A stretch of 64,000 bases of DNA from a virus (taxonomy: Duplodnaviria; Heunggongvirae; Uroviricota; Caudoviricetes). Positions 1 through 10,719 of the stretch are shown in pieces. A program made the position numbers and the translations under genes. The DNA lies in IMG/VR virus record IMGVR_UViG_3300045988_009865, positions 24,263 through 88,262 of that record. The stretch is one strand, 5' to 3'. The notes beneath the pieces were generated by a model. The model had not been told where the DNA came from and did no database searches. It saw only the letters and a list, made by a program, of their open reading frames with translations. Position 1 is the first letter of the stretch, and each line of letters begins with the position of its first letter.

Positions 1-4977
<4,977 letters not shown>

Positions 4978-4979
4978 TA

Positions 4980-6167
4980 ATGGCAGTAGGTGAAATTCAA
5001 ATTAGTGCCTTGCCTCAAGCAGCCTTACCAATTGACCTTAGTGATATCTTCCATCTTAAGCAGGGTATTGAGGATAAGAGATGTACTCTTGAGCAATTAC
5101 TTGCTCCACACTCAAGCCTAAAAAATAACCCTCATGGTGTTACTAAAACACAAATTGGTTTAGATAATGTTATTAATGCTCTTCAGTTAGTTGCTGCAAA
5201 TAACTTATCAGATATTGTTAATGTAGCTGAGGCAAGAGCAAATCTACAGATTATGTCTTCAGAAGAGGTTAATAACCTTGTCCAGCAACATATCAAGGAC
5301 AAGAGTAACCCACACAATACAACTAAGGCACAGGTTGGTTTAAGTAATGTTCAGAACTGGACAACATCTAACCTGTATAATGAAGATGCAGATAAGTATG
5401 CTACAGCAAGAGCAGTAAATAACTTGTACAAGGCTGTTCAGGCTTCTTATCCAGTAGGTACTATCCATCTTTCTATGAACTCTGCAAACCCTTCTACATA
5501 CTTAATTTGTGGAGGTACTTGGGAGTTAGTTTCAAAAGGTAGGGCATTGGTTGGTTATGACTCTGATACAAGGCCAGCAGGTTCTGTATTTGGTGCTTCA
5601 ACTGTCACTTTGTCAGTTAATAATATGCCTCAACACTCACACTCTGTGTCTCTCAGTGGTGGTGGTCACACTCATAATGCAACTGTTTCAATCTCAGCTT
5701 TTGACTATGGAACAAAGACTACCAACTCTTTTGACTATGGAACAAAGACCACTAACACAACTGGTAACCACAATCACGTTGGTAGTGGGTCAACAAGTGC
5801 TGCTGGTGCTCACAACCACAGATTGACTTATGAAGCAGGTGGTGGTCTGTCGGAAAGACCTGCAATGGTTTGGTCTACAAGGAATGACCAATCGTGGTAC
5901 TCAGCAGATGCTGTCTGCGAAGTCGCTGGTTCGCACACCCACTCTTTTAGCGTTACCACTAACACAACTGGTAACCACAATCACACAGTGGGTATTGGTG
6001 CTCATAGCCATACAGTTGGTATTGGTTCACATACACACAACGGTACTGTGACAGTTTCTTCTTCTGAGCATACACATAGTGGAAACACGAATAGTGTTGG
6101 TGGTGGACAAGCTTTCAACATTGAGCAGCCATCATTCGTACTGTATGTATGGCAGAGAACAGCTTAA
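4980..6167 (+). CDS. tail fibre protein with His-x-His repeat tip
   Basis: 395 aa; RBS aggag upstream; repeated GNHNH/SHTHS/GAHSH/GSHTH motifs; C-terminal end (VWQRTA) paralogous to next gene. Confidence 0.6.
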   Translation: MAVGEIQISALPQAALPIDLSDIFHLKQGIEDKRCTLEQLLAPHSSLKNNPHGVTKTQIGLDNVINALQLVAANNLSDIVNVAEARANLQIMSSEEVNNLVQQHIKDKSNPHNTTKAQVGLSNVQNWTTSNLYNEDADKYATARAVNNLYKAVQASYPVGTIHLSMNSANPSTYLICGGTWELVSKGRALVGYDSDTRPAGSVFGASTVTLSVNNMPQHSHSVSLSGGGHTHNATVSISAFDYGTKTTNSFDYGTKTTNTTGNHNHVGSGSTSAAGAHNHRLTYEAGGGLSERPAMVWSTRNDQSWYSADAVCEVAGSHTHSFSVTTNTTGNHNHTVGIGAHSHTVGIGSHTHNGTVTVSSSEHTHSGNTNSVGGGQAFNIEQPSFVLYVWQRTA

Positions 6168-6177
6168 TTTCTTTACA

Positions 6178-6197
6178 GGGGCTTTATAGCCCCTTTT
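6178..6197 (+). terminator. intrinsic terminator between tail-fibre genes
   Basis: ggggct-ttat-agcccc hairpin followed by tttt. Confidence 0.5.
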
Positions 6198-6213
6198 AAG
6201 AGGATAATATATA

Positions 6214-8592
6214 ATGGCAGATTACAAATTGAGTGAATTAAACTCAATCGATACAATCCGTTCAGATGACCTTCTTCATGTCAGAGTTAAAAAGAGACCT
6301 GAAATGCTGGGTGATGAAGACCGTCGAATGACCTATCAAGACTTCTTAGCATCTTTTAAGCTTGAGAGATTTGTTCAGATTATTGGTAGTACCATGACGG
6401 GTGATTTAGGGATTGTTAAGTTACTTTATGGTGGTAAGGTAGTATTTAACCCGACAGGCTCTTCTGAGATTAATATCGGGGATGTTTTAAAGACTTTTAA
6501 AATTAACGCAAACGGTCTTAAACTAACTGTTGCAGATGCTTCAAGGTCAGCAACTGTTTACCATACTCTGAATAAACCAAGTCCTAATGAGCTTGGGATG
6601 AGAACTAATGAAGAGAATGATGCGAGATACTCAAGATTAGCTGCAAATAACATCTTTACCTTCCAACAGGTTATTCAAGCAAATGGCGAAGCTATTAGAC
6701 TAAAAAACTCTTCTGAGAACTCACCGTTGTATATTAGAGGTCAGGACAGCACTGGTGCTAATAGGTGGTATGTAGGTAATGGTTCAGGGAATGATGATGT
6801 TATTATCCACAACTACAAGACAGGTTGTGAAGTTAATCTGTCTAGTGTTGCTGCTATTAGCAAAACACTAAGAATCACTGGTCAAGTTCAACCATCTGAC
6901 TTCTCTAACTTAGATGCTAGATATTTTACTCAGACAGTAGCTAATCAGAGATTTGCACAGTTAGCTGGTAATAATACATTTAGTGGCTCTAATATTTTCA
7001 CTAACTTTGTTGTTAAGAAGAATGCTAATGCTATTACTCTTCAAAATGTAGATACCACTGCGGCTTTGTATATCCAAGCAAGAAAATCAGATGGAACTAA
7101 TAAGTGGTACATTGGTAATGACGGTGATGAGAACATTGTAAACATCTATAACTATTTAGCAAAAACACAAATCTCATTAGGCAACACCATTACCATGAGC
7201 AGAACAGTCCAAATTGGTGGTCAAGTTCAACCTTCTGATTGGTCTAACATTGACTCTAGATACATTCCAGCAGCTACTTTGAGTAATCTTGCTAAACTTA
7301 ATGTGGCAAACACTTTTACAAATGTGCAGACTATTGTATCGAACAATGAAGGCGTAGTATTAAGAAACTTAACACAGGGGCAGCCACAATATATCCGTGG
7401 TGTTGATACTGCGAACGTATCTAGGTGGTGGGTAGGTGTAGGTGGTACAAATTCTACTGATGTAGCCTTAAACAACAGCTTTTCTGGGACTCAAATTACT
7501 CTTATGACTTCAGCGATTAAGGCCAATAAGAGTCTAACCATCACTGGTCAAGTTCAACCTTCTGATTGGTCTAACTTGGATGCTAGATATTTTGTTAAAA
7601 CTCAGTTATTAAATCAATCCTTAATGACTGTCTCTGTAGATAACCTTGAAAACCCTTCAGCATTTAATCTTGGATATTCAGGTTTTGTCAGAAACAACAG
7701 TGTGACTAGTGGTCTGAAAGAGTTGGCAATTCATGTTGCTCACTCTAGTAAGTCTGCTGCACATGCAAGGGGTATCTCTTTTGTATACGGTTCAAACGGT
7801 TTGGCAACATTCACCTATGCCTATGACAAAAATGGTGACTATGCCGGAGAAGCACAACTTTATACAACTGATTTTAAACCAACCCCTTCAGATATCGGTG
7901 CATACACTAAAGCTGAAACTGACCAGAAGATTGCACAGGCAGTAAGTGACTCTACAGACCTTAACAAAATCTATCCAGTTGGCATTGTAACGTGGTTTAA
8001 CAGTAATGTTGACCCTAACACAGTGTTGCCTGGGTTAACTTGGACGTACCTGAACAATGGTGTTGGTAGGACTATCAGAATCGCAGCAGCAAATGGTTCA
8101 GATGTTGCTACAACTGGTGGTTCAGATTCTGTAACGTTAGCTGTTGGTAACTTACCATCACACACTCACAGTTTCTCTGCTACCACTTCATCTTTTGATT
8201 ATGGTACAAAGGGAACTAATAGTACTGGTGGTCATACTCACTCTGTAAGTGGTACAACAAGTGCTGCTGGTAACCACGCGCACCACTTAGGTCTGCTATT
8301 AGTTAACGGTGGTGACGCTTTGTACGGGTATACAACCGTTGGTAACAAGAAGACAAGGACTCTTGACTGGCTTGACAGAACTGATAACAAGTTTCCTAAC
8401 ACTAACACAACTGGTAACCATACACATACATGGTCTGGTACTACAAGCGGTGCTGGCGACCATTCCCACTCTGTAGGTATTGGTGCTCATAGCCATACAG
8501 TTAGTGGTAACACCGGTAGCACAGGTTCTGGTTCAGCATTTAGTGTTACTAACCAGTTCTACAAGTTAATGGCTTGGGTAAGAACTGCTTAA
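6214..8592 (+). CDS. long tail fibre protein with internal repeats and His-x-His tip
   Basis: 792 aa; three copies of ITGQVQPSD(F/W)SNLDARYF; C-terminal HTHS/GNHAH/GNHTH/GAHSH motifs and ending AWVRTA like 4980-6167. Confidence 0.65.
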
Positions 8593-8599
8593 TCCCTTA

Positions 8600-8628
8600 T
8601 TGACTGATTGTTAAGATGGTGTTAATAT
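8600..8628 (+). promoter_or_regulatory. sigma70-like promoter (TTGACT-17-TAATAT)
   Basis: -35 ttgact 8600-8605, 17-nt spacer, -10 taatat 8623-8628; identical hexamers to the promoter at 50447. Confidence 0.45.
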
Positions 8629-8670
8629 TCTTTAGGGTATTCTCACCATCTTGGCTGATGAGGTGATTAA

Positions 8671-8868
8671 ATGCCTACAATCCTAGCAATTCTTCTAAAA
8701 AATCTAGGTAGCTTCTTCTGGAAACTCATTTTATCCCTTCTAAGTGAATACATGATTGAGAAAGTGTTCTTTAGGCTTGCAAGATACCTTGCGAGTAAAA
8801 CAGACACACCTATTGATGATGAGTTCGTAGATAACTTAGAAAAAGCTTTTAAGGGGGAGAATAAATGA
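8671..8868 (+). CDS. small membrane protein
   Basis: 65 aa with hydrophobic N-terminal segment. Confidence 0.35.
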   Translation: MPTILAILLKNLGSFFWKLILSLLSEYMIEKVFFRLARYLASKTDTPIDDEFVDNLEKAFKGENK

Positions 8869-9236
8869 AGTGGCTAGAGGAAGCTTTTAAAAATAATATT
8901 GGTGCAATTGTAGTTGGTATTTTTAGTGTTATTGGGATGTATACCACCATGCAAGTTTCGGATGGTAAACAAGAAGTGTCTATCACAACAAAGTTACAGC
9001 AGTTGGATAATTATTCCAAAAGTAATTATTCAGCTATCCGTGATTTACAGTCTGATATGAGGTTGCTTCAGCTAGGGATGGAGAACCAGAAAGTCCAGTT
9101 AGAGAATGTTAAGGGTGAGAACGCAAAACTTACTAAGACTCTTGATAAATTCTCTGATAGTGTGAATAATCTGGCTCAATCAGTATCAGCCCTCCAAGCT
9201 ATTACTGAAAAGAACACAAAGAATACTGAAAAGTGA
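8865..9236 (+). CDS. membrane-anchored coiled-coil protein
   Basis: 123 aa; N-terminal hydrophobic helix then heptad-like Q/L/K-rich region. Confidence 0.35.
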   Translation: MKWLEEAFKNNIGAIVVGIFSVIGMYTTMQVSDGKQEVSITTKLQQLDNYSKSNYSAIRDLQSDMRLLQLGMENQKVQLENVKGENAKLTKTLDKFSDSVNNLAQSVSALQAITEKNTKNTEK

Positions 9237-9243
9237 AGTTTAA

Positions 9244-9275
9244 GGCTCCCGTAAAAAGGAGCCTTTTTTGTTTTA
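9244..9275 (+). terminator. intrinsic terminator at convergent junction
   Basis: ggctcc-loop-ggagcc hairpin followed by tttttt g tttt; sits between + and - gene blocks. Confidence 0.65.
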
Positions 9276-10172
9276 TTTACCTACTGACAAAGGTGCTTCA
9301 ATCTTTCCTGCATGTTGGTAATTATCAATACCACCAATAAAGTCACTTGCAGTGAGATGTTTTAAGTCACTTAAAGTGTTAAGTGGGATACCAATCTCAA
9401 AAGTTGGTGCATGGAACTCTTCATTGTTCATCAGTTCATAAACCTGCTTCATATGGTTCTGATAAATCTGGGTATCTCCAAAAACACCTATCAAGTACCG
9501 TGGAGTGTATCCAGTCATCTTACAAAGAACTTCCAGAATAAAGCCATAAGATGCAATGTTAAAGGGAAGTCCTAAAAAGGTGTCTACAGAACGCTGATAC
9601 CATTGTAAGTCAACTTCACCCTCGTTAGTGATATAAATCTGAAACAGAACATGACAAGGTGCTAAAGCCATTGAGTTAGCTGCAATATCTGCTGCATTCC
9701 AAGCATTAACAAGCATGTAACGGTCTGTGATATCACCCTTCATCTTCGTTACTAAGGTATCTAACTGGTCTACAACACAACCATTATGACCTTCAAAGTT
9801 TCTCCACTGAACCCCATAAATCCTTCCACCTGCATCTTCTAACCAATCTTGTTCAGAAGAATAATTAGAGCTTAACCAGCGTTTGAAATCATCTGACCAG
9901 ATTGTCCAACGTTCTCCGTCATTTTCACCCCAAGTACGGTAACGGAGTTCACCCAGTTTATTCTCACCGTTCAGGAACCATAAAGCTTCCCCAATAACTT
10001 GCCGTGTAAACACCTGTTTAGATGTTAAAAGTGGGAAACCAGTTCTCATATCAAAACGAAATTGTGGTGGAGCAAATGCAGAGATAACATCTCCAGTTCG
10101 TGTAGTACGCAGTTCACCGACTGATAAAACATGGTTCAGGATATTTTTGTAACTTGTATCTGCTTGTGACAT
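9273..10172 (-). CDS. thyA: thymidylate synthase
   Basis: 299 aa; PCH...QFY and LGLPFNIASY-type ThyA signature motifs. Confidence 0.9.
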   Translation of the reverse strand: MSQADTSYKNILNHVLSVGELRTTRTGDVISAFAPPQFRFDMRTGFPLLTSKQVFTRQVIGEALWFLNGENKLGELRYRTWGENDGERWTIWSDDFKRWLSSNYSSEQDWLEDAGGRIYGVQWRNFEGHNGCVVDQLDTLVTKMKGDITDRYMLVNAWNAADIAANSMALAPCHVLFQIYITNEGEVDLQWYQRSVDTFLGLPFNIASYGFILEVLCKMTGYTPRYLIGVFGDTQIYQNHMKQVYELMNNEEFHAPTFEIGIPLNTLSDLKHLTASDFIGGIDNYQHAGKIEAPLSVGK

Positions 10173-10173
10173 A

Positions 10174-10719
10174 TCAAAAGTGTCCTTTTACTTGTGGAAC
10201 ATAAATTTCAAAGGTTGCTTTACCATCCTCTGATGGTTTTGACTGTACCTTTGTAAATACACGGTTATCATACAGCTTCTCAAAGAAGTTTTCAAAAGGT
10301 AAATGCACAGTGGCCTCTTCAGTAACTTTATGGAAAACTGTATGGAAAACTACACCAGCATACGGTAAAGCATTGACAAGGACACCTGCACCACCAATTA
10401 CAAATACATCTTCATCAATAGAGCTATCAAGATAGTTCAAAAATGCTCCAAAGGATTCTTTGCTGGCCTTAGCATACATTACATCATCTTTGCCAAAATC
10501 TATGCCTAAATATGGTACAGAGTTTGTTAAGATGAGGTTTGCACGTTCTGGTAAAGGTTTACTTCCCAGAGTCTTGAAAGTTTCATTACCCATCACTACT
10601 AAGTTGTTTTTAGTGAGTCTCTTAAACTCTTGCATATCTTGCTTATGTCGAGGCCACGGCATACCAGTTGGAGTACCAAACTCACCATTTTCACCACTTG
10701 CAAAGATTAATTTAATCAT
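10174..10719 (-). CDS. frd: dihydrofolate reductase
   Basis: 181 aa; N-terminal GMPWPRH...VVMGNETF DHFR motif; adjacent to thyA. Confidence 0.85.
   Translation of the reverse strand: MIKLIFASGENGEFGTPTGMPWPRHKQDMQEFKRLTKNNLVVMGNETFKTLGSKPLPERANLILTNSVPYLGIDFGKDDVMYAKASKESFGAFLNYLDSSIDEDVFVIGGAGVLVNALPYAGVVFHTVFHKVTEEATVHLPFENFFEKLYDNRVFTKVQSKPSEDGKATFEIYVPQVKGHF

Follow-up and report, generated by a model that had tools for sequence, protein, structure and literature searches.

The region considered here lies within a 64,000-nt stretch of phage DNA (the window, meaning the whole stretch that was analysed), which belongs to a Felixounavirus: a sequence search gave 98.9% identity to phage ECP2307 over positions 4675-8700, and 271 phage records match the region, mostly from Escherichia and Salmonella phages of the genus Felixounavirus. 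ORF calling placed two fibre genes exactly where the first-pass annotation of this DNA had put them (4980-6167 and 6214-8592). Gene order and the sizes of the neighbouring genes, from the baseplate wedge genes to thymidylate synthase, are as in Bas63 (Escherichia phage JohannRWettstein). The following features were recognised:

4675..4977, plus strand: upstream protein of 100 aa, matching bas63_0025 in size and position; PHROG 4141, function unknown
4980..6167, plus strand: short tail fibre gene, 395 aa; ORF orthologous to Bas63 gp26 (75% identity, same gene order)
5415..5633, plus strand: short-fibre collar, about residues 146-218, from the Gp10_C, 2XGF and T4 gp10 C-terminal alignments; probable limits
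5634..5819, plus strand: outgoing strand of the short-fibre needle, with HxH at residues 219, 230, 264 and 278 and two FDYGTK units between them; 2XGF alignment
5698..5756, plus strand: two 30-bp units in tandem, each coding for (A/S)FDYGTKTTN (period 30, 2.0 copies, 93% matches and score 104 in Tandem Repeats Finder)
5820..5927, plus strand: short-fibre head, a variable cassette of about residues 281-316, from its low conservation and the divergent segment of VpaE1
5928..6083, plus strand: returning strand of the short-fibre needle, with HxH at residues 319, 333, 342, 351 and 364; includes the 27-bp tandem
5995-6047, plus strand: tandem 27-bp IGxHxH units of gene 1 (repeat family D2, spacing 27)
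6214..8592, plus strand: long tail fibre gene, 792 aa; ORF orthologous to Bas63 gp27 (61% identity), full-length match to PHROG 4277
6646..7869, plus strand: four variable rod modules (Pfam gp37_trimer in three stretches, plus a weak gp37_C match)
Residues 145-222, 253-335 and 361-444 of the long fibre, plus strand: modules 1-3, gp37_trimer repeats of about 110 aa (Pfam)
Residues 468-552 of the long fibre, plus strand: module 4, gp37_C-like (weak Pfam gp37_C match)
6868..6927, plus strand: junction repeat copy 1, start of module 2; 0.87-0.95 conserved across 120 relatives
7207..7266, plus strand: junction repeat copy 2, start of module 3 (repeat family D1)
7534..7593, plus strand: junction repeat copy 3, start of module 4 (repeat family D1)
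7963..8589, plus strand: gp37-type tip of the long fibre, from the 2XGF alignment and the HxH and FDYG positions; domain limits predicted
Inside 7963..8589, plus strand: long-fibre collar at about residues 584-648 and head at about residues 692-732; probable limits
Inside 7963..8589, plus strand: outgoing needle strand of the long fibre, with HxH at residues 650, 674 and 688 and a single FDYGTK unit at 661
Inside 7963..8589, plus strand: returning strand of the long fibre, with HxH at residues 736, 750 and 759, and then the C-terminal strand

The short fibre matches PHROG 2097 (tail fibre) with E 2e-137, and the long fibre is 100% identical to a public protein (P0121). By its position, the upstream 100-aa protein would be the orthologue of Bas63 gp25, described as the platform of the long fibre (PMC12609058), and for the two small ORFs downstream of the fibres (65 and 123 aa) the only matches are to families of unknown function. 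A scan for promoters and terminators found nothing inside the fibre region that exceeds the expectation from shuffling; the sole terminator-like site found is situated at 9242-9265, in keeping with a single late operon. Two entries of the KhF2 record, a 'cos site' placed within the long-fibre gene and a terminator on the minus strand between both fibre genes, look like pattern-based annotation and were set aside.

The C-terminal parts of the two fibres are homologous (34% identity between residues 136-395 of the short and 560-792 of the long fibre; BLASTP, E 5e-27), such that their resemblance, which had been pointed out in the first-pass annotation, is significant on alignment; the short fibre ends in LYVWQRTA and the long one in LMAWVRTA. 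Both also align with the tip of T4 gp37 (PDB 2XGF; phmmer), the short fibre through its own residues 146-367 (E 2.6e-26) and the long fibre through its residues 648-772 (E 1.7e-22). Pfam families matched by the fibres are Gp10_C, Phage_fiber, and gp37_trimer. Gp10_C (PF21939) reaches 68.6 bits in the short fibre against a cut-off of 27 and stays just under this cut-off in the long fibre (24.7 bits), many close relatives of which carry a precomputed Gp10_C hit.

In each tip, HxH motifs recur on the outgoing and the returning strand (nine motifs in the short and six in the long fibre) and are conserved in relatives. Concerning the outgoing strand of the short fibre, H230/H232 are invariant and H219/H221 and H278/H280 at least 90% conserved (47 orthologues); on its returning strand, H351/H353 are invariant and H319/H321 and H342/H344 at least 90% conserved. 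The needle histidines of the long fibre are invariant throughout (12 of 12; 20 relatives). A variable head sits at the turn between the needle strands in both tips, and that of the short fibre is the least conserved part of the protein in the orthologue alignment, with an identity of about 0.3 to the window sequence as against 0.7-0.98 elsewhere (49 orthologues). Repeats of 34 nt, here called His boxes, flank both heads, that of gene 1 at 5747-5780 and 5954-5987 and that of gene 2 at 8253-8286 and 8397-8430; they had been overlooked in the first-pass annotation.

As had been claimed, the two genes are paralogues, both encoding tail fibres with a common HxH tip of the metal-binding type and with the collar, needle, and head of T4 gp37. 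Each fibre combines a conserved N-terminal, baseplate-binding part with a gp37-type tip, in which the collar is followed by a needle, formed by an outgoing and a returning stretch of the chain, and distally by a small variable head; by analogy to T4 gp37, this head, that of the short fibre included, would contact the receptor. In T4, metal ions hold the needle together, each of them bound via the HxH motifs of three chains, and by the same logic nine metal layers may be present in the short fibre and six in the long one. Literature on Bas63 and T4 supports a homotrimeric tip with a six-stranded needle in which the histidines bind metal (iron), and the cryo-EM study of Bas63 (2025) assigned gp26 to the short and gp27 to the long fibre, both with gp37-like tips (PMC12609058). 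C-terminal likeness to T4 gp37 had been reported even earlier for the same two genes of Felix O1 (gp76/gp77; 2010, PMC3185647) and VpaE1 (gp74/gp75; 2015, PMC4690856), the heads of which are alleles other than those of the window. Both fibres, their HxH tips of the gp37 type, and their variability were already known from the literature and, with proteins of 99-100% identity in public databases, the locus carries little weight as a discovery.

Predicted structures of the fibres were of poor confidence in both cases and were discarded as uninformative, because the fibres are intertwined trimers and the AlphaFold2 models single chains: mean confidence was 33 for the long fibre and 65 for the short fibre, with 38-60 in the needle and head of the latter and 78-91 over the blocks of ten residues that span 121-190. 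A Foldseek comparison of the short-fibre model with the PDB gave no match under E 0.03, the proteins retrieved being pore-forming toxins and similar ones. The pairing of needle units outlined below and the number of metal sites are therefore based on the periodicity of the sequence and on the T4 structure.

The organization of the tips is most readily compared to T4 gp37 and to Bas63. The T4 tip exhibits the same order of collar, HxH needle, and head, the short-fibre alignment spanning chain residues 18-228 of 2XGF; T4 gp37 and the short fibre of the window each possess a two-unit (T/F)D(L/Y)GTK motif and two IGxHxH units, and a variable head lies between His boxes in each. There are also differences: the tip in the window belongs to a single-protein fibre seated directly on the baseplate, whereas the T4 tip sits on the distal half of a jointed fibre of four proteins; at the collar end, the short fibre carries HxH motifs at residues 219 and 364 in addition to those of T4, whereas the long fibre is one motif short of T4; and the head sequences of the window are unrelated to the T4 head. 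The assembly chaperones of the gp37-type tip in T4 are gp38 and gp57A; no gp38-like gene adjoins the fibres in the annotation of the neighbouring genes. Bas63, in turn, has N-terminal baseplate-binding parts nearly identical to those of the window, bears, as the window does, a gp37-like tip on both fibres, and has long-fibre modules that are split, as in the window, by three copies of the junction motif QVQPSDW. Both heads and the long-fibre modules 1-4, however, are different alleles, and the short-fibre needle contains two FDYGTK units and nine HxH motifs in the window, whereas the Bas63 sequence has three FDYGTK-like units, and seven HxH motifs by the count given in PMC12609058.

Concerning the 30-bp tandem of gene 1, a perfect duplication of SFDYGTKTTN had been described in the first-pass annotation, which proved inexact: the units read AFDYGTKTTN and SFDYGTKTTN, with nine identical residues and a different first one, and match at 27 of 30 bases in the same register, two of the differences being synonymous. 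The FDYGTK 18-mer has three mismatch-free sites (two in gene 1 and one in gene 2); with a fourth site elsewhere that carries two mismatches included, 0.03 matches are expected. The tandem is an old two-rung unit of the needle rather than a perfect duplication of recent date. A recent duplication by slippage, found in this lineage alone and forming a length-variable hot spot of its own (a reading close to that of the first-pass annotation), would accord with the near-identity of the two units at the DNA level, and phage CRP22, in which both units carry the same synonymous variant (GGG ACT), suggests that neighbouring units are occasionally homogenised. Such an origin is nevertheless very improbable, since both units lie at the same places of the alignment (residues 242 and 252) in most aligned short-fibre orthologues, even where they have diverged, neighbouring units of Bas63 are alike at only 15-17 of 30 bases, and T4 gp37 possesses both units, the first reading TDLGTKTTS. 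Moreover, changes in unit number (2, 3, 4) are accompanied by matching changes of the returning strand and by the replacement of HxH units, and the total length of the short fibre is 382-415 aa in nearly all relatives, with no steps of 10 aa.

Copy-number variation, for which the first-pass annotation suggested a comparison with relatives, is found in gene 1, where 2-4 FDYGTK units occur among Felix O1-type short fibres. Neither of the outcomes that would have spoken against that annotation, tips lacking significant similarity and repeats that never vary, was therefore obtained. The returning strand contains a second tandem, the two 27-bp IGxHxH units, which had likewise escaped the first-pass annotation. 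The numbers of FDYGTK-like and IGxHxH units are equal in the short fibre of the window (2+2), in T4 gp37 (2+2), and in the long fibre (1+1), and relatives also show 3+3 and 4+4. Across 114 proteins the two numbers are correlated (Spearman 0.85), but these are related sequences and the motif patterns were chosen by the authors, so that the associated p-value is no true probability. Each outgoing FDYGTKxTxx decapeptide would pair with one returning IGxHxHTV nonapeptide in the middle of the needle, such that the supposed 30-bp duplication would represent two rungs of a ladder, to which the two 27-bp units 300 nt downstream would correspond.

The three copies of an approximately 55-bp repeat noted for gene 2 exist as junction repeats, which are spaced by 339 and 327 nt and are 72-88% identical to the first copy; a 22-nt core (GGTCAAGTTCAACCWTCTGAYT) has exactly three sites in the 64-kb window, as against 0.00 expected from shuffles. 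They are merely the conserved starts of modules of about 110 aa, which the first-pass annotation had missed. Three stretches are hit by Pfam gp37_trimer (PF20744), with E 6e-66 and 218.9 bits (cut-off 21.7), and the modules align mutually at 33% identity. The rod of the long fibre is a series of such modules, each opened by a conserved junction. The matches to gp37_trimer relate the three modules to the rod repeats of T4 gp34/gp37; unlike these, the felixounavirus modules are highly polymorphic and reassort. A sequence comparison of the rod with solved structures gave no match except for a weak one to the tail-fibre entries 4A0T/4A0U; the Bas63 paper likens the long-fibre modules to the gp34 rod, citing PDB 5NXH (PMC12609058). 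Copy-number variation is not seen in this gene: of the 120 closest clusters, 112 have a long fibre of 791-796 aa, no variation in the number of modules occurs in these 120 clusters or in a more distant relative of 843 aa, and the latter still has three junction motifs, its surplus length lying in module 4.

Six relatives exhibit 95-100% identity to the window in the flanks but only 40-65% in cassettes, the edges of which coincide with repeat families D1 (junctions) and D3 (His boxes). Divergent module-1 cassettes have their right edges at 6864-6904, at junction copy 1, and divergent module-2 cassettes at 7217-7224 in five of the six relatives; the ends of module-3 cassettes lie at 7539-7563, and the starts of module-4 cassettes at 7593. 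Concerning the heads, the divergent short-fibre segment of VpaE1 (5771-5967) is bounded by the two His boxes of gene 1, and its counterpart in the long fibre comprises 8246-8445. Among 120 long fibres, modules 1-4 occur as 6, 8, 4, and 5 alleles in 28 combinations, and the four-gamete condition is violated six times between modules 1 and 2 and three times between modules 1 and 3: the cassettes reassort among relatives. Junctions and His boxes are kept at the DNA level, while the modules and heads of relatives differ by about half of their bases, so that the conserved motifs between divergent cassettes probably serve as homologous crossover points. 'His boxes' were reportedly connected with the recombination of T-even gp37 by Tetart and colleagues in 1998; a literature search on this point found nothing in the library searched.

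Exchange may also take place between the two fibre genes of one genome. Two loci (L011 and L012) contain tracts of 278 and 282 nt in which the short and the long fibre gene of the same genome are 100% identical, whereas the tracts of the two genomes are only 77% identical to each other. The tracts are bounded by FDYGTK and a second 10-residue motif and start at short-fibre nt 748 in both; such identical tracts are known from these two metagenome assemblies only. We lean slightly towards the reading that the two motifs are portable linkers between which the head is copied from one fibre gene to the other by gene conversion. Were this so, some felixounaviruses would carry the same head, sometimes of the T4 gp37 type, on both fibres, and short and long tips would evolve in concert. 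The isolates EC106 and phiWec172 were considered as further cases with one head on both fibres, each having two matching places, but were rejected: they share the same T4-like long-fibre head, which is absent from their short fibres, where the head differs. The equivalent substrates in the window would be 5727-6017 and 8191-8502, with no recent conversion visible there; one perfect 10-codon run is suggestive but unconvincing, and identical residues of the two tips use the same codon in 51 cases as against 42 expected, which, one run of 27 identical bases aside, is little sign of a recent conversion.

All in all, the region very probably codes for both fibres by which a Felix O1-like myophage recognises receptors, the repeats being structural units and at the same time the points at which cassettes are swapped. 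The supposition of the first-pass annotation that the repeats are recombination substrates and hot spots thus holds in so far as cassette edges lie on them and cassettes reassort, yet the repeats are also conserved structural linkers. It is possible, if rather doubtful, that they are purely structural (serving folding, trimer register, and metal binding) with no special part in recombination; exchange would then take place anywhere, but only recombinants at module boundaries and in register would give working fibres. The repeats indeed coincide with structural elements, since the junctions open gp37_trimer modules and the HxH histidines are invariant; the repeat number of the long fibre is fixed, which gives no sign of unequal crossing-over among its 55-bp repeats; and codon identity between the tips of the window is barely above expectation. 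On the other hand, the linkers keep 87-100% DNA identity beside cassettes of 40-65% and are therefore the only stretches that permit homologous recombination between divergent alleles. Furthermore, the positions of cassette edges agree to within a few bases between independent relatives: four have an edge at 7217 and a fifth at 7224, and two have one at 7593. The tracts identical within a genome both begin at short-fibre nt 748, though they differ by 22% between genomes. With the repeats as swap points, head and rod cassettes would move between phages, including T4-like phages, and occasionally between the fibre genes of one phage.

The fibre repeats and cassettes may affect host range. VpaE1, with its T4-like head on the long fibre, grows only on E. 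coli with B-type truncated LPS (PMC4690856). It is improbable that the long fibre alone recognises the host, with the short fibre a baseplate or sheath component similar to T4 gp10/gp12 and of no importance for host range. Gp10_C is the best Pfam match of the short fibre, the short fibre of Bas63 lies against the sheath in a folded-up state and has its head placed between sheath domains (PMC12609058), and the BASEL paper regards the role of the short fibre in the genus as unexplored. The short fibre, however, is much closer to the gp37 tip (E 2.6e-26) than to gp10 (E 2e-5), and its head is its most variable part (about 0.3 identity as against 0.9 in the N-terminal half), the pattern expected under host-driven selection. 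This head is, moreover, exchanged as a cassette in VpaE1, and in some relatives it is of the T4 gp37 type.

Felix O1-like phages are used in the typing of Salmonella and E. coli, in biocontrol, and in therapy, and the present results offer details of practical use to those who engineer fibres or predict host range in this group. Natural swap points can be given to the base: the two His boxes in the short fibre (5747-5780 and 5954-5987), and 6868, 7207, 7534, 7593, and 8253-8430 in the long fibre. As a rule, we propose that outgoing FDYGTK units and returning IGxHxH units be altered together. Heads of the T4 type can sit on either the short or the long fibre: that of VpaE1 is found on the long fibre, whereas the short fibre of a further relative (P0016) shares 50% of its residues with the T4 gp37 tip as a whole and resembles it far more closely through the head, the corresponding DNA having 81-82% identity to T4 gene 37 over 192 nt.

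Judged by its sequence matches, the window is that of a Felix O1-like myophage: the region 4675-8700 matches 271 phage records, mostly of the genus Felixounavirus and from Escherichia and Salmonella (98.9% identity to Enterobacteria phage ECP2307), and public collections already contain a 100%-identical long fibre protein and a 99%-identical short fibre protein. The two fibre ORFs have the positions reported in the first-pass annotation and follow each other on the same strand behind three upstream genes:

2346-3815, Baseplate_J protein, upstream of the fibre ORFs
3812-4675, wedge-like protein of 287 aa, upstream of the fibre ORFs
4675-4977, protein of 100 aa, directly before the short fibre ORF
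4980-6167, + strand, short fibre ORF (395 aa, ORF call)
6214-8592, + strand, long fibre ORF (792 aa, ORF call), adjacent to the short fibre ORF

The C-terminal parts of the two fibres are indeed rich in HxH motifs (nine in the short and six in the long fibre), and their similarity is significant (E 5e-27): about 260 residues of the short and 230 of the long fibre align at 34% identity. Both match the receptor-binding tip of T4 gp37 (PDB 2XGF), with E 2.6e-26 for the short and 1.7e-22 for the long fibre. In Pfam, the short fibre matches Gp10_C, and the long fibre contains three gp37_trimer stretches (E 6e-66) besides weaker matches to Gp10_C, Phage_fiber and gp37_C. Phage Bas63 (MZ501086) possesses the same gene order, its gp26 being 75% identical to the short and its gp27 61% identical to the long fibre. 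By cryo-EM, these proteins are a short tail fibre of 430 Å and a long tail fibre of 630 Å, both terminating in a gp37-like tip composed of collar, HxH needle and head; the long fibre also exhibits repeat domains resembling the T4 gp34 rod, with helix-and-turn motifs between them (PMC12609058). The likeness of both C-termini to T4 gp37 was published in 2010 for Felix O1 (PMC3185647) and in 2015 for VpaE1 (PMC4690856). Given these matches, the orthology to Bas63 and the published reports, the earlier reading of two paralogous fibres with a shared HxH tip is accurate and correct in outline, and the gene pair and its architecture are already known. Added here are the detailed relation of the repeats to the structure and the sites of cassette exchange, as well as one mildly novel lead, namely that in some relatives the tips of the short and long fibres may have undergone conversion with each other.

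Concerning the long fibre, the three copies of a repeat of about 55 bp were recovered with starts at 6868, 7207 and 7534, and a 22-nt core occurs three times vs. none expected by chance. These repeats are the conserved starts of three modules of about 110 aa, which match gp37_trimer and share 33% mutual identity; degenerate forms of the junction are also found at residues 118-140 and 553-577. The length of the long fibre is 791-796 aa in 112 of the 120 closest clusters, and no variation in repeat number was found among the relatives compared, a relative of 843 aa also keeping three junctions, in agreement with the Bas63 study (PMC12609058). A further internal repeat, missed in the first-pass annotation, is situated in the short fibre at 5127-5171 (NPHGVTKTQIGLDNV) and 5307-5351 (NPHNTTKAQVGLSNV), i.e., residues 50-64 and 110-124. 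It looks like the long-fibre junction motifs and probably corresponds to the helix-and-turn motif known from Bas63.

The 30-bp tandem repeat of the short fibre gene (5698-5756, period 30) is real but not perfect as had been claimed: it matches at 93% and encodes AFDYGTKTTN followed by SFDYGTKTTN. In an alignment of 50 short-fibre orthologues, the decapeptide FDYGTKxTxx stands in register at fixed positions, most orthologues having two units, Bas63-like fibres three and another group four, such that the copy-number variation considered earlier exists for this motif, whereas the three long-fibre repeats are invariant in number among the relatives compared. T4 gp37 equally carries two such units (TDLGTKTTS, then a second one). 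Across 114 proteins, whose relatedness in sequence calls for caution, the number of FDYGTK units parallels that of the IGxHxH nonapeptides of the returning needle strand (Spearman 0.85): two of each in the short fibre of the window and in T4, one of each in the long fibre, and 3+3 or 4+4 elsewhere. Because short-fibre length stays at 382-415 aa in nearly all cases despite differing unit numbers, the changes in unit number read as exchanges of needle rungs and not as simple slippage. Each FDYGTK unit may pack against one IGxHxH unit and thereby form one metal layer; by the logic of T4, there would be nine metal layers in the short and six in the long fibre. Single-chain structure models of the fibres were poor. 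In the short fibre gene of phage CRP22, both 30-bp units have the synonymous variant TATGGGACTAAG in common, while the other relatives examined possess GGA at this position, except for one unit of VpaE1; neighbouring units may thus be homogenised to some extent, although the sign is a small one.

When 4675-8700 was aligned to six relatives, flanks of 95-100% identity alternated with sharply bounded segments of 40-65%, whose edges, placed by two-state segmentation of the alignment, fall on repeats. In VpaE1, the divergent short-fibre head (5771-5967) is enclosed by the His-box repeats at 5747-5780 and 5954-5987, and the divergent long-fibre head spans 8246-8445. The module segments of the long fibre end at 6864-6904, 7217-7224 and 7539-7563, i.e., at the three junction repeats. 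Subsets of divergent cassettes vary from relative to relative, and among 120 long fibres modules 1-4 occur as 6, 8, 4 and 5 alleles, of which 28 combinations were seen, with four-gamete violations between modules. The position of the edges, the differing subsets and the reassortment of modules thus support well that the conserved linkers serve as sites of cassette exchange. The repeats may accordingly be called recombination substrates, as proposed earlier, but in this sense only; unequal crossing-over altering repeat number is not supported.

Heads of the T4 type are found on either fibre. One relative's short-fibre protein has a head closely similar to that of T4 gp37, and over 192 nt the corresponding DNA of a second relative shares 81-82% identity with T4 gene 37. 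On the long fibre, such a head is present in VpaE1, IME338, EC106 and others; the host range of VpaE1 comprises only B-type hosts of E. coli (PMC4690856).

In two independent metagenomic Felixounavirus contigs, L011 and L012, whose raw reads belong to ERZ28588151 and ERZ16021073, the short and long fibre genes share tracts of 100% identity, known from the assemblies only, of 278 nt (L011, 4748-5025 and 7386-7663) and 282 nt (L012, 4748-5029 and 7386-7667), which encode a T4 gp37-like head. Since the tracts are identical within each genome but only 77% identical between the two, they point to gene conversion between fibre paralogues in some relatives. Such tracts are rare (2 of about 70 short-fibre clusters in the sample) and were absent from the two isolates checked. 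They start at an FDYGTK unit and end in a second, different unit of ten residues, i.e., at the motifs where the window's own fibre genes are most alike. There, 27 nt (GGTATTGGTGCTCATAGCCATACAGTT, encoding GIGAHSHTV) are identical at 5991-6017 and 8476-8502, in tips of about 34% protein identity, and this stretch lies where the putative conversion tracts of the relatives have their right end.

Within 4400-9400, just one terminator-like site exists (9242-9265), beyond two small ORFs 3' of the long fibre gene, which suggests that the fibres lie in one late structural operon converging on the thymidylate synthase and dihydrofolate reductase genes. The latter (9273-10719, - strand) face the fibre operon likewise in Felix O1, KhF2 and Bas63. 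The two small ORFs (8671-8868, 65 aa, and 8865-9236, 123 aa, + strand) overlap and have PHROG matches solely to families of unknown function; in the second, a coiled coil seems to follow a membrane anchor, and this ORF is labelled 'holin' in CRP22. The public record of KhF2 places a 'cos site' of 10 nt within the long fibre gene (4670-4679 of its fibre locus) and a minus-strand terminator between the fibre genes (3004-3019), both of which look like pattern matches and not like genuine features. At 1304-1927 (+ strand), a baseplate spike protein of 207 aa, which in Pfam matches a phage protein N-terminal domain, carries the C-terminal HxH motif NEHTHHYYW, comparable to the likely iron site reported in the puncturing apparatus of Bas63.
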